A stretch of DNA of 64,000 nucleotides from a virus (taxonomy: Duplodnaviria > Caudoviricetes), in IMG/VR virus record IMGVR_UViG_3300037847_002819, positions 1 through 64,000 of that record, one strand, 5' to 3'. The stretch's first letter is position 1. Each line of letters starts with the position of its first letter. A program made the position numbers and the translations under genes. The notes beneath the pieces were generated by a model. That model saw only the letters and a list, made by a program, of their open reading frames with translations, searched no databases and was not told the DNA's origin. This document shows, in pieces, positions 1 through 59,998 of the stretch.

Positions 1-248
1 AACTCAAAGTTATGGAATTCGTTTTCATAAATAATTGGTCTGTATGACCTCTTTACTTTATCATCAACAATACCTTCTATGTTTTTGATAATAGCACCGA
101 CTTGTGCTTGAGAAGGATATGTGGAAGAAGAAAATGCTGGAACTTGTAGCATATCAGAAACGGCATCCTTATCTGTATAAAATCCATTACCTGTTGAATA
201 GTCAACATTGATTGCGGTATAGTCACTAGGGGAGGATGCTACGGGCAT
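1..248 (-). CDS. Partial gene (runs off window), probable head-tail connector/adaptor protein
   Basis: ATG at 248 overlaps the stop of the upstream gene and reads MPVASSPSDYTAINVDYSTGNGFYTDKDAVSDMLQVPAFSSSTYPSQAQVGAIIKNIEGIVDD. The 'YT...V..ML' plus helical pattern resembles gp6/gp15-type adaptors, and it lies downstream of the capsid genes. Not in the ORF track. Confidence 0.5.
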   Translation of the reverse strand, partial: MPVASSPSDYTAINVDYSTGNGFYTDKDAVSDMLQVPAFSSSTYPSQAQVGAIIKNIEGIVDDKVKRSYRPIIYENEFHNFE

Positions 249-2071
249 TATATCACTAACTCCAATTCTTTTAATTTCTTATTAATTCTTTTAGCAAACA
301 AATTAATATCTTTTTTGACTTCATAATCCTTTTTACCGGAATAAGAAACTCTTGATTTTGGCTTTTTATCATCCGTTGCTTGCGGGGCTTTCCTTGTTCT
401 AGGTTTTGCCCTAAATGGTGCAACTTGCGAACCTCCGCCTGTTCCTTTAGGGACAACCGGAGGAACTAATTCTTCTTCTAACATTATGTAAAAACTATTA
501 ACATTGTAAGTAGTAACCATTGTCATTTTACCATCTTTCTTTTTTCGTTTATCTTCTTTAGTTACTCTCAGATATATTCTGTAATTATTTTTCAAATCAT
601 TCAATGCCCTTTTAACCATATTATTCTTTTTAACGAATGCCTTTGGGTTAGTAAACGCTTCTTTTTGTTCTGCGGCAGTTAAATTAGAAATAGGAGATTT
701 TATTCCTAGTTTTTCTTCAAACTCTTTATTCAACTCATTTCCTTTCTTTTGATATTCTTCTAACCAATTTTTCATTTTTGTCATGGCTTCGTTATCATAA
801 GCGTCTGTTGCTTCATCAAATATTTCTAAAAAGTATTCGGCTCTAGTAAGACCTGCATCTTTAGCGGCCTGTGATTCCTTTGTTGTTTTATACAGTTTTA
901 GGTATTCATCTTTGAATGTAAAATCATTATCTCTTCCTTTTCCTTTTATTAAATTAGTAGGAACAAAATTTAATTCTTCATCAGTTAATCTTTTACCTGC
1001 TTCAATTTTATTTCTGATAACATCGTATTTATCATCAAAGTCATTATATACATCTGTAAAGTCTTTAATTTCTTTTCTTAAACTAGCAGTTAAACTCATA
1101 TATTTTCTCGCTCTTTCTAACGATTCGTTTAAACTTTTTAATAATTTAGTTGAGTCCTCTAATTTTTTTTGCTGGCGTTCTTTATCTTCTTTTGAAGAAA
1201 CAGATTTTAAATCTCTAATTAACTCTTTAGTGTTATTAATTAATTCTTTAGTATTAGATACTTTATTTTCTAAAGACTCTTTCATCTCTTCTGCAAAATA
1301 AAGACTTCTAGTAAAAACATAAGGTAAGTCAAAACCTTGTTTTACTTCTCCTTTGGTATTTAATTTAACCCTGCTATAAAATTTATCATAAGATTGCATT
1401 AAATCCGAGGGAATTAACTTTCCTCTTTCTAACCCAAACTTCATAGATGTATCAATAGGTTTTAGTAAATTTATTTTACGACCTACCCGTTCAGCGTAAA
1501 TATAATCAAAGCCTAAACTATTAAGTTTTTCAGTTTTAGTTTTAGGTTTTCCTTTGTTTGGCAATTGTGACACTACATTTCTTTCATCGAATTCTAAAAC
1601 TTTAATTTCTTTTTTTCTTTCTGTTTTTTCTTTTATGCCATTTTTTTCTGCCTTTGAAAGAAAATTAAAATAATTATCAATATCTGCCCATCCCATTTCT
1701 ATTTCTTCTTCGAAATCAATGCGGCTAGTTTCACCTGTTATATCATCTAGGACTCTATCAGTTCCTAAATCCTGAATAGTGTAATTACCTACCTTATCTA
1801 AAAAATATATTTTGAAATCCATATCCAATTCTTTGATTTTGGTTTCTTTTATCTTTTTAATAGCGGCTTCGTTAATCGAATCAAATTCTTTTTTATCAAA
1901 ATTATCATTTATTTTAGGAATGCTTTCAATATAATCATCAATATCATTATAGTCCTTTTTCCTAGTTTCTAAATATTTACTACCGAAAATGAATTTCTTC
2001 ATTTCGTTTGTGGCGTATTTGGTAGTCCAATTGATAGCCCTACCGCCAGCACCACTGTAAATAATTTCCAT
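248..2071 (-). CDS. Hypothetical Lys/Glu-rich helical protein (607 aa)
   Basis: Long ORF, co-oriented and tightly packed in the late operon; coiled-coil-like segments. Confidence 0.75.
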   Translation of the reverse strand: MEIIYSGAGGRAINWTTKYATNEMKKFIFGSKYLETRKKDYNDIDDYIESIPKINDNFDKKEFDSINEAAIKKIKETKIKELDMDFKIYFLDKVGNYTIQDLGTDRVLDDITGETSRIDFEEEIEMGWADIDNYFNFLSKAEKNGIKEKTERKKEIKVLEFDERNVVSQLPNKGKPKTKTEKLNSLGFDYIYAERVGRKINLLKPIDTSMKFGLERGKLIPSDLMQSYDKFYSRVKLNTKGEVKQGFDLPYVFTRSLYFAEEMKESLENKVSNTKELINNTKELIRDLKSVSSKEDKERQQKKLEDSTKLLKSLNESLERARKYMSLTASLRKEIKDFTDVYNDFDDKYDVIRNKIEAGKRLTDEELNFVPTNLIKGKGRDNDFTFKDEYLKLYKTTKESQAAKDAGLTRAEYFLEIFDEATDAYDNEAMTKMKNWLEEYQKKGNELNKEFEEKLGIKSPISNLTAAEQKEAFTNPKAFVKKNNMVKRALNDLKNNYRIYLRVTKEDKRKKKDGKMTMVTTYNVNSFYIMLEEELVPPVVPKGTGGGSQVAPFRAKPRTRKAPQATDDKKPKSRVSYSGKKDYEVKKDINLFAKRINKKLKELELVI

Positions 2072-2082
2072 TGTGAATCAAC

Positions 2083-2736
2083 TCACATTAGCCATTTAGC
2101 CCAAGCCGCACCTTTTTGTATTGCTGAACCTAATCCTAATCCCGAAGAAGGTGGTTCGTAACTCATTTGACCATTAGCATCAATCCAATATGGGCGACCA
2201 TATCCATCTGTTCCATTTGGAGGAATAGGATAGCCCGAACCGTTATTTACTGCACTATTCACTTGATTATACTGTTGCATATTACCTGTTACACCAGCAA
2301 TTGCCGCACCAGCAGAAACCTGTGTATTTGGTGTTGAGAAGCCTTGAGATTCTAGGTATTGTTGTTTTGCCATCTTTCTTTGATTGATAACTTCTGTATT
2401 GATTGCTGAATCTAATAGTCTTGTTAAATCTAAATCAATGTTTTCTTTTGTAATTCTTTCAAATTCTGCCAAAGCACCGGATTGTAATTTCATTGTCCCT
2501 GATGTTGAATCTTGAACAAATACTAATTGCGTTAACATTTGACTAACTGACCTTGCTACTACATCTTCCATTAACTGTTCTAATGCAGCAAAAAATTGCT
2601 GACCATGATATTGGAAAAACTCTTCAACATGATTTTCTTGTAATGAAAGCAAATTACTAACATTTTTGAATTGTTGTTCTGATTGTGCTTGAACCGCACC
2701 CATTACTGCTCCATTACTTGTTCCAAACATTCCCAT
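2083..2736 (-). CDS. Gln-rich helical protein with C-terminal amphipathic/aromatic helix
   Basis: GGAGG RBS upstream; ends GLGLGSAIQKGAAWAKWLM. Confidence 0.75.
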   Translation of the reverse strand: MGMFGTSNGAVMGAVQAQSEQQFKNVSNLLSLQENHVEEFFQYHGQQFFAALEQLMEDVVARSVSQMLTQLVFVQDSTSGTMKLQSGALAEFERITKENIDLDLTRLLDSAINTEVINQRKMAKQQYLESQGFSTPNTQVSAGAAIAGVTGNMQQYNQVNSAVNNGSGYPIPPNGTDGYGRPYWIDANGQMSYEPPSSGLGLGSAIQKGAAWAKWLM

Positions 2737-2738
2737 AA

Positions 2739-3419
2739 TTATTCCTCCTTATTGTTGCTACTTAACAGATAATTTAATCTTTCCGTTGATAATCCTATTT
2801 CAACAACCAAACGGACAATTTCCGCCATAGTCGTTTCACTATCCGCTAAGGTGGGCGGTTTAATAAGCCATCCGGTTGAAGTAAGACTAGCAACATCTTC
2901 TTTGCTTAGGGTTACAAGAGGAGTTTTCTTCATAAGTTGAGGAGTTTTTAATTTAGGAATAAACGCTTTGAAGTCTAAGCCGTGTTCATCAGCAAGGATT
3001 TGTTGTTGTAGCATTTCCATTTGCTTATGAATTGCTGCGTGTTTAGGACAATAAGTGCCTCTCATCGGTCTTCCTTTAGTGACTTTATCTAAAGGAATAG
3101 GGGGTCTTAGAAAATCTCCAGCCTCCCAAACATGATGTGTTCCACAAACAATACATACATCTTTGAAATTAAACTTATGACCGTATTTTAGTTTCAGAAA
3201 ACTTTTCTTTTCTGGTAATAGAATCTTTTTTATTTCTTTTAATTGTTTTTTAGGTTTAATAGCATCGTATTTGTATTCTGTTATATTTCCACCTGCTCTA
3301 AATTGTTGTAGTTTAGGTAAAAACTTATTCATAGAAAATGAATTTAATTGACTTGGGTTGCTTGAATTAGGAGTTATTGAAACATTAGTTCCTATTAAGT
3401 TCGGTTGTTGATATGCCAT
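2739..3419 (-). CDS. Zn-binding protein (CxxC...CxxH)
   Basis: CIVCG and YCPKH motifs; GAGG RBS. Confidence 0.7.
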   Translation of the reverse strand: MAYQQPNLIGTNVSITPNSSNPSQLNSFSMNKFLPKLQQFRAGGNITEYKYDAIKPKKQLKEIKKILLPEKKSFLKLKYGHKFNFKDVCIVCGTHHVWEAGDFLRPPIPLDKVTKGRPMRGTYCPKHAAIHKQMEMLQQQILADEHGLDFKAFIPKLKTPQLMKKTPLVTLSKEDVASLTSTGWLIKPPTLADSETTMAEIVRLVVEIGLSTERLNYLLSSNNKEE

Positions 3420-3428
3420 ATTTATTCC

Positions 3429-4091
3429 TCAATAATCTTTTATCATTGTAGTGATTCCTTTATACACCATTTCGGGGTCTGATTTTGCTGATACTATGTA
3501 TTTGAATGTCGGTATTCCTTTATCATTTAGTTGCCTCATTCCGTATTTGAAAGGTTCAAAAATTTCATGTTTTTCAATAGACTTTTCTGATTTATGTTTT
3601 TCTCCCCATATATCATATTTATTAGCCCATATTCCTACTGCTAAAGGATAATCTTTTTCTTTTTTCTTTTTACCATTCGGCCATCTATCACTAATAATAA
3701 CATCAACTAAAAACTTCCACGCTACTTGGTGGTCTAAATTAACTCCGCTATCTAAGTGCCTATGGTCTATCATGAAAATAATGTATTTAGGTTTTCTCAT
3801 TCTCATATCTTTAGCCCATTCTTTCCAATATATCGCTTCTCCTCCTATATCAGAACTTCTTATAGTGTGCATATCCCCGTCTATCTTAATTGTTTTTCTT
3901 GTTGGTCTATGTAATCCAACAGTCCTTTCATTAATTTGCTGCACTTCTCCTCTTGTTCTTAATTGGTGACTTAATGTTGTTTTGCCTACCATTGTTGCTC
4001 CATAAACTCCGAAATTGATTGCGTGTATTTTTTTCCAAAAACCTATCATCGCTTCGCCGACAAGAATAGCGAAACCTGTCATCACTGACAA
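3429..4091 (-). CDS. Small GTPase, Arf/Sar1-like, with N-terminal hydrophobic/amphipathic helix
   Basis: G1 GATMVGKT, G3 DIGG, G4 NKYD, G5 SAK. The likely start is TTG at 4091 after a GGAGG RBS (the ORF track extends it to 4133). Confidence 0.85.
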   Translation of the reverse strand: MSVMTGFAILVGEAMIGFWKKIHAINFGVYGATMVGKTTLSHQLRTRGEVQQINERTVGLHRPTRKTIKIDGDMHTIRSSDIGGEAIYWKEWAKDMRMRKPKYIIFMIDHRHLDSGVNLDHQVAWKFLVDVIISDRWPNGKKKKEKDYPLAVGIWANKYDIWGEKHKSEKSIEKHEIFEPFKYGMRQLNDKGIPTFKYIVSAKSDPEMVYKGITTMIKDY

Positions 4092-4093
4092 GA

Positions 4094-4309
4094 TTAAACC
4101 TCCCAAGAATGCCAAAGGTTGTCTAATATCCAACCAACAACATTTATGTCAAAGACACCTAATATATTTCCTAGAAAGAAAAAGGATAAAGAGGCACAAG
4201 TGACCCAAAACCACATTCTCATTTTCATAAAAAACATATCAGCAGAATGCGCCCTGCTTTGATTATAAACATAGTCGGTTTCTGTAAAACCCATTATGTC
4301 ATTAAACAT
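4094..4309 (-). CDS. Small membrane protein (1 TM plus amphipathic helix)
   Basis: Hydrophobic stretch WFWVTCASLSFFFLGNILGVF; GAGGTGG RBS. Confidence 0.75.
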   Translation of the reverse strand: MFNDIMGFTETDYVYNQSRAHSADMFFMKMRMWFWVTCASLSFFFLGNILGVFDINVVGWILDNLWHSWEV

Positions 4310-4318
4310 TTAACCACC

Positions 4319-4708
4319 TCATTGTAGTTTAGCCAAAAAGTCATTTGAAATTGTGTTTTCGGTTTCATACATTGTGGTGCTAGGTGCAATAACTGATGTA
4401 TTGTATTGCTTCATAGTTTCTTGAAGTTTTTGTCTTTGTTGCTCATCCCTCGCCCTGCGTTCCCAATAAGCATTGATTCTTCTATCTAACAATCTTAATT
4501 CAATCTTATCGTTAAGTGATAAATCGAAGATTGCTTTCAAACACATGATACCTCCAACGGTAATTAATCCGAACAAGGTAGCATGGGCTAATGTAGTGTA
4601 AGGGAAATTAATCCCGTAGTTAGCATAAAAATATACATTAGCACCGCTAACAGTGCCAACGAATAGTATAGTCATAATTAGTCTAGTATCTTGATTTAGT
4701 GCCGCCAT
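4319..4708 (-). CDS. Membrane protein, 2 TM plus cytoplasmic coiled coil (holin-like topology)
   Basis: Two hydrophobic segments followed by a charged coiled coil (ERRARDEQQRQKLQE). Confidence 0.75.
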   Translation of the reverse strand: MAALNQDTRLIMTILFVGTVSGANVYFYANYGINFPYTTLAHATLFGLITVGGIMCLKAIFDLSLNDKIELRLLDRRINAYWERRARDEQQRQKLQETMKQYNTSVIAPSTTMYETENTISNDFLAKLQ

Positions 4709-4717
4709 CCGACCACC

Positions 4718-5017
4718 TCAGTTAAATTCAACAGAAACATTAGCGGTGGATGAACCTGTTTCAACCACTTCTAAGAATAATCCTGTATTGCACAAAACTC
4801 CATGCATATCATATTCATAATTATAATAGCCTGTTGTTGAATGCTCTATCATGGCAATTTTAGTTCCTGTATTATCAGTGCCATCATAGACATTGATAGT
4901 TACTGCCCCATTACTCACAATTTTAATAGCCGCATGAATACTAACTAATTTCGTTCTTCCTGTGACAATTAATTTATCAGCACCTAAAACACCGCTTGAC
5001 CTGCTTGAATATCCCAT
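4718..5017 (-). CDS. Small beta-rich putative virion protein
   Basis: Alternating hydrophobic beta-strand pattern; AGGTG RBS; downstream of the capsid genes. Confidence 0.6.
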   Translation of the reverse strand: MGYSSRSSGVLGADKLIVTGRTKLVSIHAAIKIVSNGAVTINVYDGTDNTGTKIAMIEHSTTGYYNYEYDMHGVLCNTGLFLEVVETGSSTANVSVEFN

Positions 5018-5072
5018 AGTATCACCTGTTTCAATTGAGGGAGACTACGCCTCTCTATTAATACTACCGATA

Positions 5073-6084: not shown

Positions 6085-7419
6085 TCACTGTATGTTAGTA
6101 ATTTTTCCTTGACCCTTGAAGAAAGAACAACCGACTTCACCGATTGTTCTATACAAAGCCCTGTTACCTAATGTTCCTACACCGAATGGGTTTCCATTAG
6201 CGATACCATCTTCAAAGTATTGAGTTGGCTTCATAACTGATAGCCATAGATGGTCTGTATCAAGGAATAATAGGTCAGATAGTTGAGTTGAAGCCAATCC
6301 TGTGCTAGTCATGTCTTTTACAGGAATTAGTGGAATATCGTAGTATGTTGCTACTCTAAATCCTACTTCTTGACCCTTTGTTCCACGAACACCGTTCACT
6401 GTTGGAACAATTTCTTTTCTATCCATAAATCTTTCTTGACTTTGCAATAGGTCTGCAATTGCTTGAATAGTGTCATATCCGGTTAGAATAACCTTTGGTG
6501 AACCACCAGCAAGTCTTAGGTTGCGAACCATGTTATTTAGCAAAGTTAGGCTTAGTGGCCTAACATCTGTTGCTGCATAAGAATTACCTTCATCAACTTC
6601 GGCATCAAGGAATGAAGCCGCATCACGGTTTGTTCCGTAAATGTGACTTACATTTGTTGCAGTAGCACTATCAGTCATTAGAGAAGATTGTGCGTCTAGT
6701 TTATCCAATTCATCCTTTGAAGTAATAACCTTCAACAATGAAGTATAATTGTTACCAATGTTAGGCAATAGTGCTGATTCACCATAAAACTCTAGTGGCA
6801 TAACAAGCATCTTGTTTTGGACTTCAGCGTGGTGCTTACCCATATCTTCACGCATTTGCGCTCTAATATCGCCAATTCCATCATCAATTTGTGCCATTTC
6901 CATAGCCAACTCGCTGAAATCAAATTGGTGTGCAACAACTTTAGGACTCATGTTCAATTGAGCATAAGTTGGTGCAATTGGCCCTAATCCATCTTGTGCA
7001 GTTGAAAGTCCAGCATTTTCTGGAACACCACCAATAGAATCTGCTCTAGGTGTATCTGAACCCAATTCTCCCAATGTTAGGGAAACATCTGCTTTATCAA
7101 CAGTAAATAGATTACCGCTACCACCAGCAGGTCTGCTCTTTAATACTCTCCAACCGCTTGAAGTGTATGGCCTCTTTGAAATCATAGACAATGCGTTAAC
7201 TTCACGGTTTAGCATAGACCAAACCTTTTGTCCATAAACGACATTGTATAGTGCTGATACATCAGAAACGGCTGAACCGCTAAATGACGGAGAACCGTCA
7301 TGTCCTGTGTGTATTCCACCAACCATACCTGCTTGCTTTAGCAAGGCATTTCCGGCTGGAAGATTCATTCCGTATGTTTGTGCTTCTAAATCTGCTATTG
7401 TGTTAATATATCCTGTCAT
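6085..7419 (-). CDS. Major capsid protein (HK97 fold)
   Basis: About 444 aa directly after the protease/scaffold; archaeal-caudovirus MCP-like segments (MREDMGKHHAEVQNKML, GFRVATYYDIPLIP, LLFLDTDHL); ATG at 7419 after GAGGTG. Confidence 0.9.
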   Translation of the reverse strand: MTGYINTIADLEAQTYGMNLPAGNALLKQAGMVGGIHTGHDGSPSFSGSAVSDVSALYNVVYGQKVWSMLNREVNALSMISKRPYTSSGWRVLKSRPAGGSGNLFTVDKADVSLTLGELGSDTPRADSIGGVPENAGLSTAQDGLGPIAPTYAQLNMSPKVVAHQFDFSELAMEMAQIDDGIGDIRAQMREDMGKHHAEVQNKMLVMPLEFYGESALLPNIGNNYTSLLKVITSKDELDKLDAQSSLMTDSATATNVSHIYGTNRDAASFLDAEVDEGNSYAATDVRPLSLTLLNNMVRNLRLAGGSPKVILTGYDTIQAIADLLQSQERFMDRKEIVPTVNGVRGTKGQEVGFRVATYYDIPLIPVKDMTSTGLASTQLSDLLFLDTDHLWLSVMKPTQYFEDGIANGNPFGVGTLGNRALYRTIGEVGCSFFKGQGKITNIQ

Positions 7420-7429
7420 CTTAATCACC

Positions 7430-8671
7430 TCAAATATTGTTCACCATTTTGTGAATATCGCTCCAATCCATTGATGCAATATCATCAATTGATGGCATTT
7501 TAATTACTGATTCTTCTTGTGCTTTTAGGATAGTTTCCTTTTCAGCAGTCAAAGACTTTCTTAGTTCGCTAAATTCTTCTTTAATGGAAGCAATTTCAGC
7601 CTGTGCGTCATATTGTGACTTTGCGAGAATGTTCTCACGGTTTGCAACTTCACTGCTAAAGCGAGTTTCAAAAGACTTGCGAAGGTTATCGTATGCTAGT
7701 TCCTCAAGTTTTTCTTGACGGAATGCTTCGTAAGCCTTCTCAATGTTTGCATTTGATAGGTTTAGTGTATCAAATTCATTGTTTTCAAATGCTTTTACAA
7801 CCGGCATATCGGAAGCAGTTGGCTTTCCGTTGTTAATGACGATTCTATCAGCAGGTTCACCAATTTGATTACCTGCACCATCAAGTGTTCTTAGGTATGC
7901 TTTGTCGGCAGAATCATCATAACGAGGGTTTGTTCCTTCTTTCTCATCATCTTCTTCATCACCTTTCATGTAATCGCCTTTGTCCATATCGTCAGCCATT
8001 TCCATGTATTCAGCATTTTCTTCCATCATTTCAGAATTGTTGTCCATAGACTCCTCTTCGTCTCCTTTTAGACTCTCAACTTCTTTTAGAAGAGTGTCTA
8101 ATTCATTTAGTGCTTTTTCTAGTTTATCACTCATTTTTTCATCTCCAATATCTTGTTTCAGAATATCAAACTTCGCTTCGGGATTAATGCCTTTTTCACA
8201 TATTGTTACTTCATGGAGTTCTAATTTACTTATTTCGTTATACTCCCCTAATTCACTGTGGCTTTTCTTTACTTTTTGTAATGCTTGTCCACCTATGCTA
8301 AAAGACCTTAATGTGCCTTTGCGAATACCTCTTCCAACCTCTTTGGCTTTTTCTATGTCATCCCTTAATTTAATTACTACAAAGAACCCTACATCATCAA
8401 CTTCCGATTTCCATAGTTTTCCGGTTTTATCCCTATAAGAGTCCACAACTTCTCCAACTTGAACATTTGAATGATTTGTCATTACATTTCTGAATTTTTT
8501 ATCTTCCATGAATTTTGTAACTGCGGTTTTTAATGCATTTAATGTAATTAAATCGTTTTGTTTATCCACGATTTCAATACTTGCATATCCTCCAATCATT
8601 AAATCATCGCTTTTTAGAATTCTGAAATCATCATTCCTTGTTGCCATGACACTAATGCTCATGTTCTTCAA
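7430..8671 (-). CDS. Prohead maturation protease fused to scaffolding domain
   Basis: HK97-type protease motifs GYASIEIVDKQND, NH(S), SFSIGG, LHEVTICEKGINPEA; acidic linker and coiled-coil C-terminus. Confidence 0.9.
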   Translation of the reverse strand: MKNMSISVMATRNDDFRILKSDDLMIGGYASIEIVDKQNDLITLNALKTAVTKFMEDKKFRNVMTNHSNVQVGEVVDSYRDKTGKLWKSEVDDVGFFVVIKLRDDIEKAKEVGRGIRKGTLRSFSIGGQALQKVKKSHSELGEYNEISKLELHEVTICEKGINPEAKFDILKQDIGDEKMSDKLEKALNELDTLLKEVESLKGDEEESMDNNSEMMEENAEYMEMADDMDKGDYMKGDEEDDEKEGTNPRYDDSADKAYLRTLDGAGNQIGEPADRIVINNGKPTASDMPVVKAFENNEFDTLNLSNANIEKAYEAFRQEKLEELAYDNLRKSFETRFSSEVANRENILAKSQYDAQAEIASIKEEFSELRKSLTAEKETILKAQEESVIKMPSIDDIASMDWSDIHKMVNNI

Positions 8672-8708: not shown

Positions 8709-11234
8709 TCATTTAGGTGGAAGTGGCAATTTTTTATACTTATCTTCGTAAATATTCCATAGTCCAGCATCAGTGTCTTTATCTGCTGGCTTCTGTTTAT
8801 ACCCTGTCCAAGCCAGCCACATTTCCTTTCCATCCACTTCTATTACTCTAAAGTGCAGTTTAGTTTCAAACTTATTACCTCTCAAGAAATATTCGTGATA
8901 GCCTTCTTTCTGAACACCGAGTCCTATTTCTCCAGAATCTATAATTTTCTTCTTGGAAATGTTAGTTGCTATTTGGGCAGGGTATTTATTCGCCTTTCCA
9001 AACAATCTGAATATATCATCGTCTTTTTCTAAGTCTATTAACCAATTAAGTGTTTCATCTTCTAACTTAATTACTAAGTTTAAGTTTTCATCATCCCTTA
9101 GATATAATTTGAAATTACCCTCTTGAAGTTTTTTTGGAGTTTTATATTTTTTAATTTCCTCTTCATCTTGCATAATCTTATCGGGGTCTGCAATTAATTT
9201 CTTTTCTTTCTTATCAAAAGAAATACCATCTCTTTCATCCATCCAATTAGGTAGTCTATTCATTTTACTTTCTAGAATATCTTCATATATTTTAGAATGA
9301 TTTTTTACTAAGAAATCATGTAATTCTTTAGGAGTTTTTGCACCCCTTTCCTTTAGATACTGAAAGGCCGCAACAGTTAATCTAGACTGTTTTGTTTTCA
9401 TTATTGCTTCTGCTTGACTTTTCCATTCATCTAAATTTGCTAAAGCATTTTTAGACATTAAGTTACTTTCATCGAACCCATAAATAGTAAATCCATCCAT
9501 GTCACCTTTAATAATAACATTAGTTTCACCGTGAATATAATCAGTAACACTTACTCCCTTTTCTAATGCTTTTACATCATAATTCAAAGATTTCTTTGTA
9601 TCTTTAGATAACAACTCAAGTGTGACTAACTTATCAGGATATTCCACTTCTGGAACTTCTATTACTTTAGCAGAATAAATTGAATAAGTGTCTCCTTTCT
9701 TTTTTACCTCATCAACTTTTACACGAACAATATCTCCAATATCAACAGATATTTTAGTATTCAATGCTTTTCCTACATTCATATATTTAAGACCATTAAT
9801 TTCTTGTCCTTCATCAGTCGGCCCAGCCCCTAATGTATATGAATACAGTTTAGATTTAGTTTTCTTTTTATCTAACACAATCAAATCTAAATCAACAAAC
9901 TTCTTCCATTTAATCCATTTAGGATTTTTCTTAGTCCCTATGTAATATGTGGAAGTTGAATCTTTAATGACTACACCTTCGGCAGTAGGCATATCCATTA
10001 TTTCTTTTGAATACTGTTCAACTTCTTTAATCGAATCCGCTAATCGAGTATCTTTCTTAGAAGGGAAGTTTAGATATTCACTCGAATGAACAGAATAATT
10101 ATTGAACATTGTGTTCAATCTATCACTCAAAGGTTCATCTGCAATATTTTTGTCATTGTGTCGCATAATGTCAAACATATGCGCTTTTAGTTTAGCATCA
10201 GGATATTTACCCTTAAACACATGAGCAATAGTATCTGCTCTATGTAGTGCATCCTTTCCATCAAATAATATTAATTCACCATCTAGAATACAATCCCCGA
10301 AGTGTTTCTTCTTCATTTCTTCAACGATTTCTTTACACTTATCAGTAATATCTTTTTCATTATAGGAATAAACTTTAATCTTGTTGTCTATTTTATGAAC
10401 CTGTATTCTCATACCGTCATATTTTTCTTGAACAATGTATTCACCGCTAAATCCTTTTAACTCTTCCATGTCTTCAATGTCAAATATTCTATACATAGGT
10501 TTGTTAGGAGTAATAAAATCTGTCTTACCCTTTTCTGTTTCTGATTTTTCAATCATTTTTTTAGGTGTATCAGTTTCCATGTCAATATCTTCTAACTCTT
10601 CCCAATCTTCTTCATTGTGTTTAGAAAAGAATAATAGTTCTAACATAGCCATAGCAGACTTAACTTTCTTTTCCACCTTCTTTGAGTCTTTTCCATCCCC
10701 ATAATGCTCAATAATATAGAGGGGAATATCATCCACTTCTAGGTCAAGTCCCATAAGACCATCCGTAATGGTGTCAGGTTTCATGTCTTTAACGCTGTAA
10801 ATGGATGGATTAAGTGCTTTATTGTCATTTCTCATAGCATAATGCAAGAATTTAACCATTGTTTCCGGTGATTCTAATAACGCTTCAAGAACATTATCTT
10901 TGAAGTGTTTGGCAAAAGGGTCAGAAACCTCATCAGAAGCATATCGAAGTTTTTTCACTGCTTCGTATATCTTTTCAGCAATAGTAGTAGTTACATCGGA
11001 AGCATCTTCATTATTCAAATCCTTATCATCAATGTAGCGTTTCAATTCTTCTCCAAACTTCCCCGAATCATCATATTCCTCTTTGATGTATTCAATAGCA
11101 CTTCTCCATTTTGAACCATACTCTTTCGGGTCGGTTCTTGCAGAAAGATAGGCAACCCTAACTCTTTCAAACAATTGAAGTATTTGATTAGAAGCGTTAC
11201 CCTTCTTCTCAAATAGAAGGCCGGATTTAGGCAT
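8709..11234 (-). CDS. ATP-dependent DNA ligase-like multidomain protein in the head module, with a degenerate LigD phosphoesterase-like C-terminal domain
   Basis: Motif I EKYDGMR, III LDGEL, IIIa FDIM, IV EGVVIK, V WIKWK, followed by an OB fold. Confidence 0.85.
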   Translation of the reverse strand: MPKSGLLFEKKGNASNQILQLFERVRVAYLSARTDPKEYGSKWRSAIEYIKEEYDDSGKFGEELKRYIDDKDLNNEDASDVTTTIAEKIYEAVKKLRYASDEVSDPFAKHFKDNVLEALLESPETMVKFLHYAMRNDNKALNPSIYSVKDMKPDTITDGLMGLDLEVDDIPLYIIEHYGDGKDSKKVEKKVKSAMAMLELLFFSKHNEEDWEELEDIDMETDTPKKMIEKSETEKGKTDFITPNKPMYRIFDIEDMEELKGFSGEYIVQEKYDGMRIQVHKIDNKIKVYSYNEKDITDKCKEIVEEMKKKHFGDCILDGELILFDGKDALHRADTIAHVFKGKYPDAKLKAHMFDIMRHNDKNIADEPLSDRLNTMFNNYSVHSSEYLNFPSKKDTRLADSIKEVEQYSKEIMDMPTAEGVVIKDSTSTYYIGTKKNPKWIKWKKFVDLDLIVLDKKKTKSKLYSYTLGAGPTDEGQEINGLKYMNVGKALNTKISVDIGDIVRVKVDEVKKKGDTYSIYSAKVIEVPEVEYPDKLVTLELLSKDTKKSLNYDVKALEKGVSVTDYIHGETNVIIKGDMDGFTIYGFDESNLMSKNALANLDEWKSQAEAIMKTKQSRLTVAAFQYLKERGAKTPKELHDFLVKNHSKIYEDILESKMNRLPNWMDERDGISFDKKEKKLIADPDKIMQDEEEIKKYKTPKKLQEGNFKLYLRDDENLNLVIKLEDETLNWLIDLEKDDDIFRLFGKANKYPAQIATNISKKKIIDSGEIGLGVQKEGYHEYFLRGNKFETKLHFRVIEVDGKEMWLAWTGYKQKPADKDTDAGLWNIYEDKYKKLPLPPK

Positions 11235-15872: not shown

Positions 15873-17522
15873 TCAACCAACTCTCCTTTCGGTTCTTTTA
15901 TCCACATTTTCATTACCCGCATCTTTAGGTAATCCTGACATTCGCTTATCTGGCCCTACATTCATTGAGGCTTTATTCCTTGTGGCTGGAGGATTTTCCT
16001 GTGGTTTAGAACCTCCCGCTAATGCTTGTTCTTGCATTTGTCCTAATTGTGATGCATCAATATTTGTTCCCGCATATGGGTCTTTTTCAGCCGGTTTATC
16101 TTCTTTACCGCCTTCTCCCATTTCACCTTCAACGGGTTCTGGTTTTTCAAAGGTAAAGTTACCTTCTTCATCCATATCAACTTCAAATCCTAAATTCTTA
16201 ATAGAAGCCGCAATATTGACTTCTATTTCTCTTTTTCTTAATTCAGCAATTTCATCTTCTTCTTCTGATGGAGGGAGTTTTAGAACCCAATCTGTTATTC
16301 CAAATTGCTTAACTAAGTATGGAAATACATAATTATTATACACATTCTGCGCCATTTGAACTGCACGATTAGTAACTAGAATCTGCATACCTTCATTGTT
16401 CAAACCACCGCTTGTAGTGTTATCAGCCATGAAAACTTTACTGACACCATAGAATGCTGAAATCCTATCTCTTAAATCATCCTTTACAGACATATAATCC
16501 ATTTCTTTTAGACTGTCCATAAACTTAATCCATTCAATAGCACCTTTACCGCCACTATCTGATTCAACACCCATAACAGGAATAAAGTGAGGGTCGGACT
16601 CCATCTTCTCTTTAACACCACGCCAAAAGGCTCTCATTGAATCTAAATTACGAGTTTGAACCGCCAATAATCCTCTTGGCATTCTGCTCTTAGTATATGC
16701 TGAATTAACATAATTTTCCATAGCAATAAGAGTCATAATATGATTGTATAATGTAATTACAGGAGAGAAACCATAAAGTCGGCTAGGACTGTATTTACTA
16801 AAGTGTAATACTTCGCCTTCTAGGAAATATTGGTCGTCACCATTCGCTCTATTAACATAATGAACAGGGTATAGATTACCTCCACACTGTTCACAAGTAT
16901 GATGGGGTTCTGTATGTAATACATCTCTATGATTAATACAAGTAAATCCTTTTGTTCCCTTTACTCCATCTTCATCTGCATAGATAAACATGGTTACAGG
17001 GTCGCCTCTAAATATTTCTTTGATACGGTGCATTCTAATTTTACCATTACCGTCAATAAAGTATTCTTTGACAAGAACAATATATGCATCATCCATAGTA
17101 TTCAAATCGTCTTCTAATTCTTTCAATACATCTATGAATAATTGTTCTGATGGGTTAACATATCCTTCTAGGAACTTTTCAGCATATTCTAATTGCTTTA
17201 CATCGGGCATCTTCAAATCTTCTGAACCACATCTTGAGCATTGAGTTACAGGTCTGTTGTGTTTTTTACCACAACTTTTGCATATAGAATCGTATGCCTT
17301 TTCCCAAACATATCCTCTTCTATACACTTCTTGTTTTAATTGAGTAATACAGGTTCTAACAATAACTGATTGCTGAACCATAGAATAAATGATAGGCGCA
17401 GTCATCATGTAGTTATTCTGTCTTTCTTGAATACCCATGTTGAATATCTGCCTATCAGCAGGTTTAGGAGTGGAACGCCTAAATAATTGCCTAAACGAAA
17501 ATCGCCTCTTGCCATCAGCCAT
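15873..17522 (-). CDS. Portal protein with Zn-ribbon insertions
   Basis: Portal-like segments EVLHF..SRLYGFSPV, MPRGLL, ISAFYGVS; two Cys clusters; position between terminase and protease. Confidence 0.9.
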   Translation of the reverse strand: MADGKRRFSFRQLFRRSTPKPADRQIFNMGIQERQNNYMMTAPIIYSMVQQSVIVRTCITQLKQEVYRRGYVWEKAYDSICKSCGKKHNRPVTQCSRCGSEDLKMPDVKQLEYAEKFLEGYVNPSEQLFIDVLKELEDDLNTMDDAYIVLVKEYFIDGNGKIRMHRIKEIFRGDPVTMFIYADEDGVKGTKGFTCINHRDVLHTEPHHTCEQCGGNLYPVHYVNRANGDDQYFLEGEVLHFSKYSPSRLYGFSPVITLYNHIMTLIAMENYVNSAYTKSRMPRGLLAVQTRNLDSMRAFWRGVKEKMESDPHFIPVMGVESDSGGKGAIEWIKFMDSLKEMDYMSVKDDLRDRISAFYGVSKVFMADNTTSGGLNNEGMQILVTNRAVQMAQNVYNNYVFPYLVKQFGITDWVLKLPPSEEEDEIAELRKREIEVNIAASIKNLGFEVDMDEEGNFTFEKPEPVEGEMGEGGKEDKPAEKDPYAGTNIDASQLGQMQEQALAGGSKPQENPPATRNKASMNVGPDKRMSGLPKDAGNENVDKRTERRVG

Positions 17523-21134: not shown

Positions 21135-22784
21135 TTATTCCTCCTCATATTCTGGAAAATCTTCCGGTTGCATTACTTTACCATTCTCATCAACATAGTG
21201 CCACATAAACCCTTTAGCAGTGTAACCTGTTTCATCTTCTAAAAAGTTATTTATTGCATCATCTATGTATTCTTGTGTCATAGCCCAATCATCGGGAAAG
21301 CCCAAATCAGCAATAGGAACGGCCATGTATGTTGGTAAATCGCTTTCATCTAATCTAACAGATTCACCTTCGATATATTCTGCATCATCCCAATCAACTT
21401 CTGTAATTACAAATGTCTTTACTTGTTGTTTAGCAATAATTCCTCCGATGCCTTCTAACTCATCCATAAGGCTCATTTTACAATTGCCTTGTAATTTAGA
21501 AATATCATCAACATATATTCCCTCTTTGGAAAAGTCAAACCCAACATGGTCTTTGTGGTTCTCCCACTTCATCAGTTTGAATATTTCTTCACACCTGCCC
21601 TTATACCAATCAGCCTTCTTGTATGACTTCTTCATGCGGATTAATTCTAGCAACAATTCAGCATTACCCTTCTTCATTCTAAAGTGTGGCAAGCACTTTG
21701 TCAATAGGTTATACACATCATCTTGCGAATAAAAGTTAAGGCGATTTACAGGTCTTGTATCTTGTGGGGATTTTTGGTCTAAGTGTAATTTACCAAAACC
21801 AATAGACTTGTGCATTTCATTCATAAACACCTTGCCTCTCTCTCCTGTTGCCACTAACCCTACTCTTGGATTATGGTTTCTATCCATAGTAATGTAGCCG
21901 TCTGAATCAATAAATGCGGCAGTATAAGCCCATACATTTTTCTTTAATTCACTAGGTAATTTGTAATATGACCCATCATAATGACCTACTTCTAATTTTT
22001 TAATCATCTTAGAAATAGTGTTTGATGAATTCATTTTGTGTAATTGATTCGGCATTTTATCATGTATGCTTAATAGCCCAATTCCCGGATTTTCACATAT
22101 TGCTTTCATAATAAAGTCTAATGTTCTTTCTTTCTTTGATTTAACTAAAGATTGGTCACTAACCTTTTTTAATTCTTCTCTAAACTCTTTCTTTGCTAAT
22201 CTAGATTCTTTCTCTAATTTAGCATATTCAGGACTAAAAGCCATTCCTTCCTTTTTCAAATCAATTTCCCATAATTTACAAAGAGAGTCAACAACAACTC
22301 TTCTCTCTTTAACTTCTGAAATTTTATTTAATTTAGATAAATCTTTTTCGTTGAATCTCATCTTTAATAGCGGAACTTTGTAGGGTTTAATCCAATAAAT
22401 AGAATCAATGCATTTATTGATGTGGTCTGCATAACCATCAATAACGGTATCAATTGCTTCAGACATTCTAATTCTAGAATCGCCTTTTAATTTCCTTCTT
22501 GCTTTACGCATCTTTCTAACTAAATCTGGAATGTTTTGTCCATCAACAACATATTCAGACGGGAAGGTGGATAACCTTTTTCTAGCATCAGTGGCATTTA
22601 TGTTAAGATTCTTTGAAAGAGTAGTTACCGCTTCATAATCTGACATGACATAATCAGAAACGCCTGTCAATTTAATATTCAAATCACTTTCAACTTGAGT
22701 GACTTCTTCTTCCTTTTCACGCTCTAATTCAGCAAGACGCTTCATTCTTTCTGCGGCTTCATCGTATTCATCTGCTGATACCAT
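21135..22784 (-). CDS. Multidomain protein with LAGLIDADG endonuclease domain
   Basis: AYTAAFIDSDGYI motif preceded by helical and wHTH-like regions; acidic C-terminal extra domain. Confidence 0.8.
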   Translation of the reverse strand: MVSADEYDEAAERMKRLAELEREKEEEVTQVESDLNIKLTGVSDYVMSDYEAVTTLSKNLNINATDARKRLSTFPSEYVVDGQNIPDLVRKMRKARRKLKGDSRIRMSEAIDTVIDGYADHINKCIDSIYWIKPYKVPLLKMRFNEKDLSKLNKISEVKERRVVVDSLCKLWEIDLKKEGMAFSPEYAKLEKESRLAKKEFREELKKVSDQSLVKSKKERTLDFIMKAICENPGIGLLSIHDKMPNQLHKMNSSNTISKMIKKLEVGHYDGSYYKLPSELKKNVWAYTAAFIDSDGYITMDRNHNPRVGLVATGERGKVFMNEMHKSIGFGKLHLDQKSPQDTRPVNRLNFYSQDDVYNLLTKCLPHFRMKKGNAELLLELIRMKKSYKKADWYKGRCEEIFKLMKWENHKDHVGFDFSKEGIYVDDISKLQGNCKMSLMDELEGIGGIIAKQQVKTFVITEVDWDDAEYIEGESVRLDESDLPTYMAVPIADLGFPDDWAMTQEYIDDAINNFLEDETGYTAKGFMWHYVDENGKVMQPEDFPEYEEE

Positions 22785-59778: not shown

Positions 59779-59998
59779 ATGGATTTACTTAGCAAATGCT
59801 ATGTGGACTTATGCTGAAAAGCATGAAGGTAAAATTAGCCGCCTTCTAAAAGAATTGGTTAAAATAGTAAATAAAAATATGGAGATGATTATAAATGACA
59901 ATGAACAGACTAGCGAGACTATTAGAAAGCACAGACCAGAAAACACCAACACAACAAGTTTCGATGATAACGGAACAAGTGGGAACATTCAAGAATAA
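59765..59998 (+). CDS. Hypothetical protein
   Basis: Short ORF; its 3' part overlaps the ligase start. Confidence 0.5.
   Translation: MKKNEWIYLANAMWTYAEKHEGKISRLLKELVKIVNKNMEMIINDNEQTSETIRKHRPENTNTTSFDDNGTSGNIQE

Follow-up and report, generated by a model that had tools for sequence, protein, structure and literature searches.

A predicted Arf-like small GTPase in a conserved and portable gene block of a magrovirus, a candidate for action on the archaeal host membrane

Marine Group II archaea are abundant in the ocean, and a small gene block in one of their viruses raises the question of how tailed viruses of this group act on, or break, the membrane of the host. The block lies in the first 64,000 nucleotides (the window) of record IMGVR_UViG_3300037847_002819, a magrovirus (virus of Poseidoniales, Marine Group II archaea) of 95,889 bp and 100% completeness that also encodes a capsid protein, a prohead protease, a portal and a thermosome-like chaperonin. 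It comprises the genes for two membrane proteins of 129 and 71 aa, a small GTPase of 220 aa, a Cys/His protein of 226 aa and a Gln-rich protein of 217 aa, and is a candidate for this membrane function. Among the named homologs of the GTPase, the best is annotated as hypothetical and comes from Poseidoniales virus YSH_150918 (77% identity), and in the papers searched no GTPase is reported for these viruses.

A preliminary description of this DNA had noted five clustered genes; all were recovered as open reading frames on the minus strand, with the coordinates it gave (Table 1). The gaps between them measure 2–9 nt (4309/4319, 4091/4094, 3419/3429 and 2736/2739) and a GGAGG/GGTGG-like motif is found 5' of each gene; judged from this spacing, the five genes may be co-transcribed. 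For the GTPase, the program-made list of reading frames opens at a TTG at 4133, and relatives use the TTG at 4091, which has GGAGGT 6 nt upstream; the N-terminus quoted in the preliminary description is exactly that of the resulting 220-aa form. Most homologs are 217–222 aa long among the 120 matches listed. In the window, the block is situated inside the morphogenesis operon, after the capsid gene and between the head genes and a head-tail connector-like gene.

Table 1. Positions of the block genes, their flanking genes and the sequence elements of the GTPase in the window
Feature	Position	Strand	Remarks
Charged, fast-evolving 607-aa protein, next downstream	248..2071	-	K+R 20%, D+E 17.5%; cassette membership uncertain
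Gln-rich protein, 217 aa	2083..2736	-	N-terminal M-G-x-F/L-G, central helical region
Cys/His protein, 226 aa, orphan family	2739..3419	-	C89-x2-C92 ... C124-P-x-H127
Arf-like small GTPase (predicted), 220 aa	3429..4091	-	TTG start at 4091; 329 homologs at E<=1e-3
G5, SAK	3483..3491	-	Residues 201-203; aligned with G5 Ser-Ala of Arl3
G4, NKYD	3612..3623	-	Residues 157-160
Polybasic loop, KKKKEK	3654..3671	-	Within an insertion before beta-5
G3, DIGG, and Glu85	3837..3851	-	DIGG residues 81-84; Glu85 at the catalytic Gln/His position
G1/P-loop, GATMVGKT	3978..4001	-	Residues 31-38
N-terminal hydrophobic helix, then Lys-Lys	4035..4091	-	Residues 1-19; model and hydropathy
Single-pass membrane protein, 71 aa	4094..4309	-	Kyte-Doolittle peak 1.75 from residue 44
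Membrane protein, 129 aa	4319..4708	-	Two hydrophobic segments, then charged C-terminal half; hydropathy
Conserved 99-aa upstream neighbour	4718..5017	-	In 79 of 80 close loci; cassette membership uncertain

The motifs G1, G3, G4 and G5 had been reported for the GTPase and all four are present; G1, G3 and G4 are intact in every one of the 158 complete homologous reading frames of the fetched loci. The replacement of the catalytic Gln/His after DxxG by Glu had also been read correctly. This Glu is found in 81 of 81 close homologs, and the 77 distant homologs carry Gln (52), Glu (18) or Asp (7). The insertion before beta-5 contains basic residues in relatives too (alignment A1), and its polybasic loop might act as a lipid-binding element.

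From profile and structure comparison, and not from phylogeny, the protein is likely an Arf-like GTPase, though a very divergent one. The family profile searched against the PDB gave Arl3 as its best single-domain match (2.9e-12, 49.8 bits), followed by the Asgard ArfR structure 8oun (1.1e-10), Arf1 (1e-9, 41.5 bits), Sar1 (6e-9) and KRas (7e-9, 38.8 bits). An AlphaFold2 model (pLDDT 91, pTM 0.88) was compared by VIA, where ranks 1–35 are all Arf/Arl chains (Z 17.9–19.0, about 160 residues aligned, rmsd 2.2–2.6 A in most rows), led by Arf6 (Z 19.0, rmsd 2.4 A, 162 residues) and followed by SRbeta (17.8), ArfR 8oum (17.7) and Sar1 (17.6). A Trp 11 residues after the G3 Asp in switch II marks the Arf-SRbeta-Galpha group; here it is near-invariant, being kept by at least 90% of the 25 sequences of alignment A1 (as W89, with D78 as the Asp), and its counterparts in Arl3 and G-alpha(q) (miniGq) are Trp as well. 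The closest family-bearing ESM Atlas clusters likewise carry Arf. Thus, the membership in the Arf/Sar1/SRbeta/G-alpha kind that had been proposed is supported, whereas a specific kinship to Sar1, seen earlier in an alignment by eye, was not borne out, as Sar1 is no closer than Arf/Arl by profile or by structure. Placement among MglA or Roc had been named as evidence against the proposal, and the GTPase was placed with neither.

Some of the comparisons are less discriminating, and they could also suit a generic Ras-superfamily/TRAFAC GTPase that only resembles Arf and has a cytosolic role in translation, signalling, defence or counter-defence, next to unrelated neighbours. By Foldseek E-value, Rab1 and KRas come out on top with Arf6 at rank 7, so that Rab, Ras and Arf are not separated; a wide VIA search ties Arf6, a Loki RagA-like protein, SRbeta, mimivirus Rab and Sar1 within 1 Z; and the profile margin of Arl3 and Arf1 over KRas is small. 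The window GTPase has no Pfam Arf match at E<=0.1, its own best matches being Roc (17.7 bits) and MMR_HSR1 (16.2 bits), both below their cut-offs, and as a single sequence it found nothing in the PDB. A relative 59% identical to it (P0121) reaches 16.8 bits for Pfam Arf against a cut-off of 22.3. Among 20 distant representatives scanned singly, Arf (PF00025) is the best Pfam family and passes its cut-off in six (P0161 with 57 bits, P0169, P0178, P0182, P0181 and P0158), but the model also matches in 13 of 14 control prokaryote genomes, so that passing this cut-off is unspecific. The relevance to the origin of Arf-family GTPases that had been suggested is not supported, the nearest relatives of the GTPase that were found being other viral or metagenomic proteins. 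Against a generic cytosolic GTPase stand the purely Arf/Arl composition of the best 35 structural rows, the conservation of a hydrophobic N-terminal helix and the result of PADLOC, where the only matches among seven proteins, BrxA (E 0.0046, 14.5 bits) and Cas85f (E 0.01), are sub-significant and none concerns the GTPase. Together with the conserved gene order described below, these make this explanation very unlikely.

The N-terminal helix had been described as amphipathic. A helix exists, spanning residues 2–19 in the model of a 217-aa form that starts three residues later, but it is hydrophobic rather than amphipathic (Eisenberg <H> 0.67, muH 0.16; Kyte-Doolittle mean 1.53 over residues 1–19). 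In the window lineage, it would serve as a hydrophobic anchor. The 18-residue segment before beta-1 (11–29 residues before G1) has a median Kyte-Doolittle value of 1.63 in 82 close homologs and of 0.93 in 77 distant ones; being much less hydrophobic there, a fixed transmembrane anchor is not a trait of the whole family. Altogether, the GTPase is probably associated with the membrane.

Several known GTPases share parts of this architecture. The eukaryotic Arf family (Arf1, Arf6, Arl1, Arl3, Arl6, Arl8 and Arl2) has the same G-domain fold, gives the best structural and profile scores and resembles the viral protein in the helix before beta-1, the Trp at G3-Asp+11 and an NKxD G4 motif. However, identity in structural alignments is only 17–23%, the viral helix is hydrophobic, not amphipathic and not myristoylated, Glu stands in place of the catalytic Gln, and a basic insertion precedes beta-5 in a protein of 220 aa, compared to 159–174 residues in most matched chains. 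Neither an ArfGAP nor a Sec7 partner is present beside the viral GTPase. Sar1 would belong to the same clade and has the same general architecture, with His after DxxG in place of the viral Glu; a Sec23/24-like or Sec12-like partner is absent from the viral surroundings. In SRbeta (Z 17.8, rmsd 2.4 A, 164 residues), an N-terminal membrane anchor precedes an Arf-like G domain, which is the topology suggested for the window lineage. Four of the 25 sequences in alignment A1 match Pfam SRPRB, the best with 22.5 bits, so that none reaches the cut-off of 25. An SRX or longin partner of the viral GTPase was not recognised and, to our knowledge, archaea have no SRbeta.

Giant viruses also encode small GTPases, acquired from their eukaryotic hosts. 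These are Rab, Ras and Ran proteins, and in BFVD they come nearest to the magrovirus protein among viral structures (best E 2.9e-10); mimivirus Rab (5XC5), e.g., scores Z 17.7. They come from viruses of eukaryotes and from other families, unlike the Arf-like protein of the magrovirus, and among the 50 BFVD matches listed none is named as a protein of a phage or an archaeal virus. In prokaryotes, GTPases of Arf type that have an N-terminal helix have been described for Asgard archaea, namely the ArfR proteins GerdArfR1 (8OUM/8OUN) and HodArfR1 (8OUK) (10.1101/2024.02.28.582541). Their helix is reported to be amphipathic and to fold back when GDP is bound, and an interswitch toggle with a two-residue register shift is coupled to helix release (10.1101/2024.02.28.582541). 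The ArfR proteins score Z 17.7 and 17.5 against the viral GTPase, not above eukaryotic Arf/Arl, and they are cellular proteins with genomic partners unlike those of the viral block.

The genes upstream of the GTPase encode the two small membrane proteins. For the 129-aa protein, two transmembrane segments had been proposed, of which one is strong (Kyte-Doolittle 19-residue peak 1.91 from residue 43) but the other only borderline (1.55 from residue 10). It has no Pfam family and one weak PHROG match without a function, and it aligns with its positional counterpart in a distant lineage over 80 columns (hhalign probability 38.6%, E 3.2e-4). The place of the 71-aa gene is taken in distant lineages by a membrane reading frame of 54–91 aa that has no detectable sequence similarity to it (hhalign probability 1.3%). 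Within 1.5 kb upstream of the GTPase, 76 of the 79 close loci and 63 of the 75 distant ones have at least two membrane reading frames.

Such an arrangement recalls the holin-antiholin cassettes of tailed phages, in which small membrane proteins, one with two segments and a charged tail and one single-pass, occur together in a late block. By hydropathy alone, the topology fits that of holins (small, 1–3 membrane segments, charged C-terminal tail). In other lineages, packaging genes follow the block at a distance of about 9 kb, an arrangement also found for some lysis cassettes, e.g. that of lambda. In contrast to these cassettes, neither protein matches a holin family in Pfam or PHROGs and the block has no endolysin. 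We know of no precedent for a GTPase-controlled lysis system and of no lysis cassette with a GTPase.

Downstream of the GTPase follow the two orphan proteins. The 226-aa protein had been called a Zn-finger protein; the motif C-x2-C...C-x2-H exists, and all 18 sequences of alignment A2 keep C89, C124 and H127 (as well as G93, G116, T122 and P125), but the second Cys is not invariant. The protein is at most a putative metal binder. All of its 624 homologs are free of Pfam domains and lie on contigs of at most about 109 kb. The protein itself gave no Pfam match at E<=0.1 and no PDB profile match below E 0.2, and its model, a poor one (pLDDT 63.5), gave no fold match (best VIA Z 4.2, none by Foldseek at E<=1e-3). 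An ArfGAP zinc finger is a Cys4 finger with short spacing and an Arg finger. It was considered for this protein and is not supported, as the motif here is C-x2-C-x31-C-x2-H with a variable second Cys, and there was no family match.

The 217-aa protein is indeed Gln-rich, as had been stated, with 10.6% Gln compared to 3.3% in the long reading frames of the window. It has no Pfam family, and in alignment A3 it groups with the Gln/Met/Gly-rich proteins that occupy its position in distant lineages. Its closest family-bearing Atlas clusters are T7_gp14 (0.82, with the family on 16% of members) and P22_gp7 (0.81, 13%), scores that are below the 0.9 lead level of the tool, where such rows are often due to chance. 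Since T7_gp14 and P22_gp7 are families of ejection proteins, and since the block of the window sits in the morphogenesis operon between head genes and the connector-like gene, a role in the virion or its assembly has to be considered: the products of the block might be packaged, e.g. for insertion into the membrane during DNA delivery, or form a membrane platform for assembly, with the GTPase as an assembly or delivery factor. With its long tail and a 729-aa tape-measure-like gene, the virus would have no need for podovirus-style ejection proteins, however, and we know of no GTPase that is packaged in a tailed virion. As the block also moves relative to the head genes in other genomes, a role in the virion is distinctly unlikely.

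Conserved linkage of the GTPase gene to the membrane-protein, Cys/His and Gln-rich genes had been suggested as a check, and the linkage persists where the GTPases share only about 30% identity. The order is constant across 80 close loci; all of them have the 71-aa gene next to the GTPase on its upstream side, 79 have the 129-aa gene at its position, 74 the Cys/His gene and 72 the Gln-rich gene. Identical gene order was found in two further viral lineages, whose GTPases are only about 30% identical. In three of these genomes (G001–G003), the portal and capsid genes lie downstream of the block and share its strand, with the capsid gene about 20–23 kb away, and in two (G002 and G003) the block lies about 9 kb upstream of a homolog of window reading frame 21135–22784, among the packaging genes. 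An order that is kept while the genome position differs identifies the block as a portable unit. That it is kept at about 30% identity in three lineages, and that the block moves as a unit, argues against unrelated neighbours, and the five genes probably work together. Throughout, block and structural genes are encoded on one and the same strand, a pattern that suits a late function better than an early one. The GTPase has a median identity of 82% and the capsid protein one of 72%, a comparison biased by the choice of loci by GTPase similarity.

The closest functional precedent acts on the archaeal cytoplasmic membrane. ArvA, a small GTPase whose N-terminal helix is amphipathic, is required for vesicles of Haloferax volcanii and shares an operon with ArvB and the Zn-ribbon protein ArvC in the production of euryarchaeal extracellular vesicles (PMC10927574). 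The viral block likewise has a Cys/His gene immediately downstream of its GTPase, and in the distant lineages the N-terminal helix has a lower hydrophobicity and comes closer to a surface-seeking one. By this precedent, the block might tubulate or vesiculate the host membrane without lysis, in order to shed receptors, exclude superinfecting viruses or build an assembly platform. The block differs from ArvABC in its two additional membrane proteins and the Gln-rich protein, and the two GTPases were compared by description only. Identity with ArvABC was rejected: models of ArvB (OapB, PF09846) and ArvC (OapC, PF09845), which both match Haloferax volcanii and Methanosarcina acetivorans, found nothing in five viral records searched in six frames at E<=0.1. 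Moreover, an exhaustive search with the GTPase as a single sequence yielded only 70 representatives, none of them named in the library searched, compared to about 1,666 members of the ArvA family, for which the groups named are Halobacteriota, Methanobacteriota and DPANN, while 'Poseidoniales' is absent from the main text (PMC10927574). The strand shared with the structural genes also suits a late function better than an early one, and non-lytic membrane remodelling is fairly unlikely as the role of the block.

A system of GTP-timed lysis, budding or membrane compartments had been proposed earlier and is hypothetical as yet. The best reading overall, which we put forward tentatively, is that the GTPase works as a membrane-anchored GTP switch through which the small membrane proteins are controlled late in infection, with egress as the most likely purpose. 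Egress in particular, as the role of the block, is possible rather than probable. The hydrophobic helix would hold the GTPase at the host cytoplasmic membrane, perhaps aided by the adjacent Lys-Lys and the polybasic loop, and the retained nucleotide motifs suggest that the protein binds and probably hydrolyses GTP. One nucleotide state might then recruit or release the two integral membrane proteins and the soluble Cys/His and Gln-rich proteins, by which the membrane action of these products would be switched on late in infection. For egress, the 129-aa and 71-aa proteins would breach the membrane like a holin pair, and the GTPase would set the time or the place. A full Arf-type, GTP-driven viral machine, in which the anchored GTPase gates or shapes a lesion made by the two small membrane proteins with two orphan partners, is a doubtful proposal. 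If true, tailed archaeal viruses of hosts bounded only by a membrane and an S-layer would have their first described egress system, and viruses of prokaryotes their first membrane device controlled by a small GTPase. Beyond eukaryotes and Asgard archaea, Arf-like GTPases would then also have a large reservoir in viruses that has so far gone unseen.

Two flanking genes might extend the block. The 99-aa gene upstream is preceded by an AT-rich spacer of 55 nt, and no counterpart was seen in the distant lineages. The 607-aa protein downstream has tblastn matches in only six of 80 close loci, and its slot is filled by a charged reading frame of 407–813 aa in all 10 loci inspected.

The window is low in G+C (about 30–39%) and carries nearly all reading frames of its first 36 kb on the minus strand; the whole record is rated 100% complete at 95,889 bp. 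Among the matches listed, the best named relative of the GTPase is a hypothetical protein from Poseidoniales virus YSH_150918 (77% identity). This kinship and the gene content identify the record as a magrovirus, one of the tailed viruses that infect Marine Group II archaea. The gene order runs from packaging genes over portal, protease, capsid and four small genes to the five-gene cassette, followed by a charged 607-aa gene, a connector-like gene and the tail genes. One of the two DNA ligases is an 841-aa form located between the portal region and the prohead protease. The first ORF (3–248) is cut by the window start; if the linear record is circularly permuted, it presumably continues at the end of the record.

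Features of the cassette and of its viral surroundings (window positions unless stated otherwise)
Feature	Position	Strand	Remarks
129-aa membrane protein	4319–4708	minus	Kyte-Doolittle peaks 1.55 and 1.91
71-aa membrane protein	4094–4309	minus	single Kyte-Doolittle peak 1.75
GTPase, 220 aa	3429–4091	minus	G1, G3, G4 and G5 motifs
Cys/His protein, 226 aa	2739–3419	minus	C-x2-C ... C-P-x-H
Gln-rich protein, 217 aa	2083–2736	minus	Gln 10.6% vs 3.3% background
Capsid protein	6085–7428		PHROG major head protein, E 4e-23
Prohead protease	7430–8671
Portal	15873–17522		Pfam Phage_portal, score exactly at cut-off
Two ATP-dependent DNA ligases	8709–11234 and 59895–61424
UvrD-type helicase, ribonucleotide reductase, thermosome-like chaperonin			window genes, library matches
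Tail module	77740–95777 of the whole record (G000), beyond the window	minus	547-aa ORF, 729-aa tape-measure-like ORF, 2,340-aa ORF

The five cassette ORFs lie head to tail with gaps of 2–9 nt, and a GGAGG- or GGTGG-like motif precedes each of them. From 5417 to 2071, only one gap is sizeable (5018–5072, 55 nt). It is AT-rich, includes an ATTAATA stretch and lies upstream of a 99-aa gene, and it is possibly an archaeal promoter for this gene and the cassette. A mechanical ORF list starts the GTPase at TTG 4133. As homologs are mostly 217–222 aa long (among the matches listed) and TTG 4091 has GGAGGT 6 nt upstream, the start was assigned to TTG 4091, which is the N-terminus used in the preliminary description.

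A word-indexed search identified 329 GTPase homologs at E ≤ 1e-3 among 442 candidates, and the JGI name 'GTPase SAR1 family protein' was attached to 4 of 120 listed homologs. The family is narrow, since an exhaustive search of 1.84 billion representatives found just 70 relatives at E ≤ 1e-3, some of them full-length, with 28–39% identity. Viral stretches of IMG/VR encoding relatives fell to 251 loci close to the window GTPase, 81 related to the distant representative P0134 (second lineage) and four related to P0137 (third lineage); the best 80 of the 251 close loci, 80 loci for P0134 and the four for P0137 were compared. For three further distant representatives (P0161, P0132 and P0142), no related loci were found in the viral contigs searched. 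Among 810 candidates, no fused or longer form of the GTPase was detected at E ≤ 1e-3, a result that carries little weight. tblastn searches of the GenBank phage collection, from which very near records may have been withheld, gave no match at E ≤ 0.01 with the window GTPase, P0134 or P0161.

All nucleotide-binding motifs reported earlier are present in the 220-aa protein, namely G1 (GATMVGKT), G3 (DIGG, then Glu85), G4 (NKYD) and G5 (SAK), and G1, G3 and G4 are intact in each of the 158 complete homologous ORFs from the fetched loci. The replacement of the catalytic Gln/His by Glu, also noted before, was confirmed at Glu85 and extends to 81/81 close homologs. The 77 distant homologs have 52 Gln, 18 Glu and 7 Asp directly after DxxG. 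Acidic residues are thus a recurrent and tolerated state at the catalytic position of the viral GTPases, and Gln is likely to be the older state. In Ras, intrinsic hydrolysis increases when the corresponding Gln is replaced by Glu; if this effect holds here, Glu85 could, speculatively, render the viral switch self-timing.

Taken alone, the window GTPase is too divergent for family libraries. Pfam gave Roc with 17.7 bits and MMR_HSR1 with 16.2 bits, both below cut-offs, NCBIfam small_GTP reached 17.8 bits against a cut-off of 42.5, and a single-sequence search of the PDB with it returned no match. A profile built from a 25-sequence alignment of the viral family (A1) matched Arl3 in the PDB at 2.9e-12 (49.8 bits), followed by the Asgard Arf-type GTPase ArfR (8oun, 1.1e-10), Arf1 (about 1e-9), Sar1 (6e-9) and KRas (about 7e-9); its nominal top match was a tandem miniGq construct with two stretches of about 25 bits each. 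Six of 20 distant representatives (P0161 with 57 bits, P0169, P0178, P0182, P0181 and P0158) passed the Pfam cut-off for Arf with Arf as best family, a cut-off that is unspecific by itself, as the model also matches in 13 of 14 control prokaryote genomes.

The AlphaFold2 model of the GTPase (pLDDT 91, pTM 0.88) consists of a helix at residues 2–19 and a Ras-type alpha/beta domain. With Foldseek the families could not be told apart, as Rab1, KRas and Arf6 each scored near 1e-9, and a wide VIA search gave a tie of Arf6 (Z 18.6), a Loki RagA-like protein (17.9), SRbeta (17.8), a mimivirus Rab (17.7) and Sar1 (17.6). In a second VIA look at Foldseek's 1,000 best chains, ranks 1–35 were all Arf or Arl (Z 17.9–19.0), and SRbeta, ArfR, mimivirus Rab and Sar1 came after them. 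A Trp 11 residues past the G3 Asp is near-invariant in the family alignment and aligns with a Trp of Arl3 and G-alpha(q); we take it to mark the Arf/Sar1/G-alpha group and not Ras or Rab. The ESM Atlas ranked viral clusters first, and then clusters in which Arf is the commonest family. Together, the profile scores, the Arf matches of distant members, the second VIA look, the Trp and the Atlas make it quite probable that the viral protein is a very divergent Arf-type GTPase, and not MglA or Roc. Of the Sar1/Arf-like identity originally proposed, the kinship with the Arf type was retained, with Arl3 as best profile match and Arf/Arl at the top of the structural ranking, and a specific relation to Sar1 was not, Sar1 being no closer.

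Residues 1–19 of the GTPase are about as hydrophobic as the weaker segment of the 129-aa protein (Kyte-Doolittle 1.53 vs 1.55), and Lys-Lys comes next. With <H> 0.67 and muH 0.16, its hydrophobic moment is low, so that the N-terminal helix of the preliminary description is supported but not its amphipathic character; in sequence, it resembles the SRbeta membrane anchor more closely than the amphipathic Arf helix. Its median Kyte-Doolittle value is 1.63 in 82 close homologs, 0.93 in 77 distant ones and 0.82 for the third lineage (four loci), which argues for a conserved helix whose depth in the membrane probably differs among lineages. The insertion before beta-5 contains a Lys-rich loop (KKKKEK), which is basic in relatives also and would face acidic lipids.

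The cassette is well conserved. By tblastn over the best 80 of the 251 close loci, the 71-aa gene was found in 80, the 129-aa gene and the 99-aa upstream gene in 79 each, the Cys/His gene in 74 and the Gln-rich gene in 72; gene order is constant, and contig ends account for many of the missing genes. At least two membrane ORFs are located within 1.5 kb upstream of the GTPase in 76/79 close and 63/75 distant loci. The Cys/His gene directly follows the GTPase in 53 of the 67 close loci with enough downstream sequence. In 14 of the 67, an extra ORF of 173–201 aa without the Cys/His motif lies between them, at about 6670–7270 in locus coordinates (L019, L022, L023, L029, L031, L033–L035, L039, L042, L050, L072, L074 and L075), and an insertion of 300–1,000 nt separates the 71-aa gene from the GTPase in loci such as L017, L019 and L042. 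Two junctions of the cassette thus accept insertions. In the close set, conservation within the region is highest for the GTPase, with a median identity of 82% vs 72% for the capsid protein and a higher value in 43 of 73 loci, a figure that is inflated because the loci were picked by GTPase similarity.

Downstream of the cassette, the 607-aa protein (248–2071) is highly charged (K+R 20%, D+E 17.5%) and fast-evolving, with a tblastn match in just 6/80 close loci. The slot before the conserved connector-like gene is always filled by a charged ORF of 407–813 aa (10 of 10 loci inspected). A Syntaxin-like identity of the 607-aa protein was discarded, as Syntaxin_2 scored 19.2 bits against a cut-off of 26.5 and is probably coiled-coil noise.

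In the P0134 lineage, the GTPase is 25–34% identical to that of the window. There, the order is a 147–202-aa membrane protein, a 54–91-aa membrane protein, the GTPase, a 292–357-aa protein and a 190–224-aa Gln/Met/Gly-rich protein, which begins with M-G-L-F-G or similar and is often followed by a membrane protein of about 80–88 aa. The 292–357-aa protein had a tblastn match to the Cys/His protein in 31/80 loci and is its true homolog, and the Gln-rich proteins of window and lineage align. Similarity of the larger membrane proteins between close and distant sets is weak (hhalign probability 38.6%, E 3.2e-4), and for the smaller ones it was undetectable by hhalign (probability 1.3%). The third lineage (L162–L165, G+C 45–52%) has the same layout. 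Linkage of the five genes, a point raised in the preliminary description, is therefore conserved in the same order in close loci and in two distant lineages; that the GTPase is a cytosolic regulator with unrelated neighbours is highly improbable. In the distant lineage, several small proteins upstream of the cassette (L093:2746–4108) have an A-W-x-x-x-K-like motif at or near the N-terminus, which is absent from the cassette proteins, and Pfam GP88 proteins occur just upstream of the cassette at L081:3166–4353 (E 5.8e-9) and L083:3507–5561 (E 2.4e-5).

Three distant viral records (G001–G003) encode capsid proteins with 45–46% identity to that of the window, portals with 43–47% and homologs of ORF 21135–22784, which has no Pfam match in the window, with 29–30%; by these identities, they belong to related viruses. 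In none of them is the cassette beside the capsid gene. In G003, all on the plus strand, the GTPase lies near 15.8 kb, the homolog of ORF 21135–22784 at 25.9 kb, the portal at 27.1 kb and the capsid gene at 39.2 kb, and G002 and G001 have the same order on the minus strand. The different position relative to capsid and packaging genes indicates that the block has moved as a unit, while its internal arrangement and its location on the same strand as the structural genes were kept. From this movement, as the strongest argument, we infer joint action of the five genes and their expression alongside the late genes.

In an alignment of 18 Cys/His proteins (A2), C89, G93, G116, T122, C124, P125 and H127 are invariant, whereas Asp replaces the second Cys in some members of the P0134 lineage. 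The protein belongs to an orphan family of 624 members, none named and none with a Pfam domain, on contigs that do not exceed about 109 kb. Its poor model (pLDDT 63.5) reached a best VIA Z of 4.2, Foldseek with this model found nothing at E ≤ 1e-3, and a PDB profile search found nothing below E 0.2. An ArfGAP identity was rejected owing to wrong spacing, the unconserved second Cys and the lack of any family match. For the predicted complex of GTPase and Cys/His protein, calculated from A1 and A2, both uncontrolled runs were under the mark and count neither for nor against an association. The Gln-rich protein was assigned to no family, and its only ESM Atlas rows with a family were T7_gp14 (0.82) and P22_gp7 (0.81), scores that often arise by chance. 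As a rival reading, a role of the module in the virion, DNA delivery or assembly is doubtful. PADLOC gave no significant defence match for the seven proteins tested.

A membrane-anchored GTP switch would, in the mechanism proposed here, control the membrane proteins of the module late in infection. Egress is tentatively put forward as its leading role, since the module travels with late genes, encodes two small membrane proteins of holin-like topology and would have to breach a host envelope of membrane and S-layer only. A further reason is that the sole egress discussion among the magrovirus papers searched, on a putative holin-based system (PMC11706807), covers only another order of Poseidoniales viruses, Adrikavirales.

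The nearest functional precedent is the euryarchaeal ArvA-ArvB-ArvC operon. Its small GTPase ArvA has an amphipathic helix at the N-terminus; knock-out of ArvA lowers extracellular-vesicle production of Haloferax volcanii about three-fold and its overexpression causes a 3.5-fold rise, whereas loss of the Zn-ribbon protein ArvC increases vesiculation (PMC10927574). The viral block likewise couples an Arf-like GTPase to a Cys/His protein, a pairing that recalls this operon and might point to ArvA-like non-lytic vesiculation or receptor shedding. However, the Pfam models OapB (ArvB) and OapC (ArvC) match in none of five viral records and both match in Haloferax volcanii, and such a role is considered unlikely. 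Asgard ArfR has fold and helix in common with the viral GTPase but is cellular, not viral. In BFVD, the nearest viral structures among the best 50 rows are Rab, Ras and Ran proteins of giant viruses of eukaryotes, and no row among them carries the name of a phage or archaeal virus protein.

The magrovirus GTPase is not described in the main texts searched, and supplementary tables may list the gene. The word 'GTPase' does not occur in the main texts of PMC5434244, PMC11706807, PMC10160649, PMC8651126 and PMC7318539, the ArfR preprint (10.1101/2024.02.28.582541) does not mention viruses, and the available part of PMC10927574 refers to viruses just as infection conditions and describes no virus-encoded GTPase. 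The literature search returned no paper joining Caudoviricetes with an Arf-like GTPase, and, by title and abstract, no Poseidoniales GTPase paper on viruses. A conserved, portable module of an Arf-type switch and membrane proteins is a concrete and clonable candidate for egress. It would add viruses of prokaryotes to the carriers of Arf-like GTPases with an N-terminal membrane helix, joining Asgard archaea (ArfR) and Euryarchaeota (ArvA), and bears on the spread of GTPase-driven membrane remodelling beyond eukaryotes. A vesiculation or DNA-delivery device instead of a lysis device would be new as well.

In the cellular genome contigs searched, a set that did not cover Poseidoniales genomes, the sole match was on a 12.2-kb contig of a MAG titled Maricaulis sp. 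(G005; loci L161, L166 and L167). At least three contigs of this MAG (C57, C77 and C139) carry magrovirus-type capsid genes with 67%, 66% and 52% identity, and on this basis the GTPase copy is read as a mis-binned virus contig and not as a bacterial gene. P0161 was absent from 400 other genomes of the phylum of the MAG at E ≤ 1e-5, and two of the three capsid-bearing contigs also encode the GTPase. The capsid match on one of them (G005:C57:4232–5587) holds one in-frame TAG, for which a sequencing error, a disrupted gene and stop-codon recoding are all conceivable.
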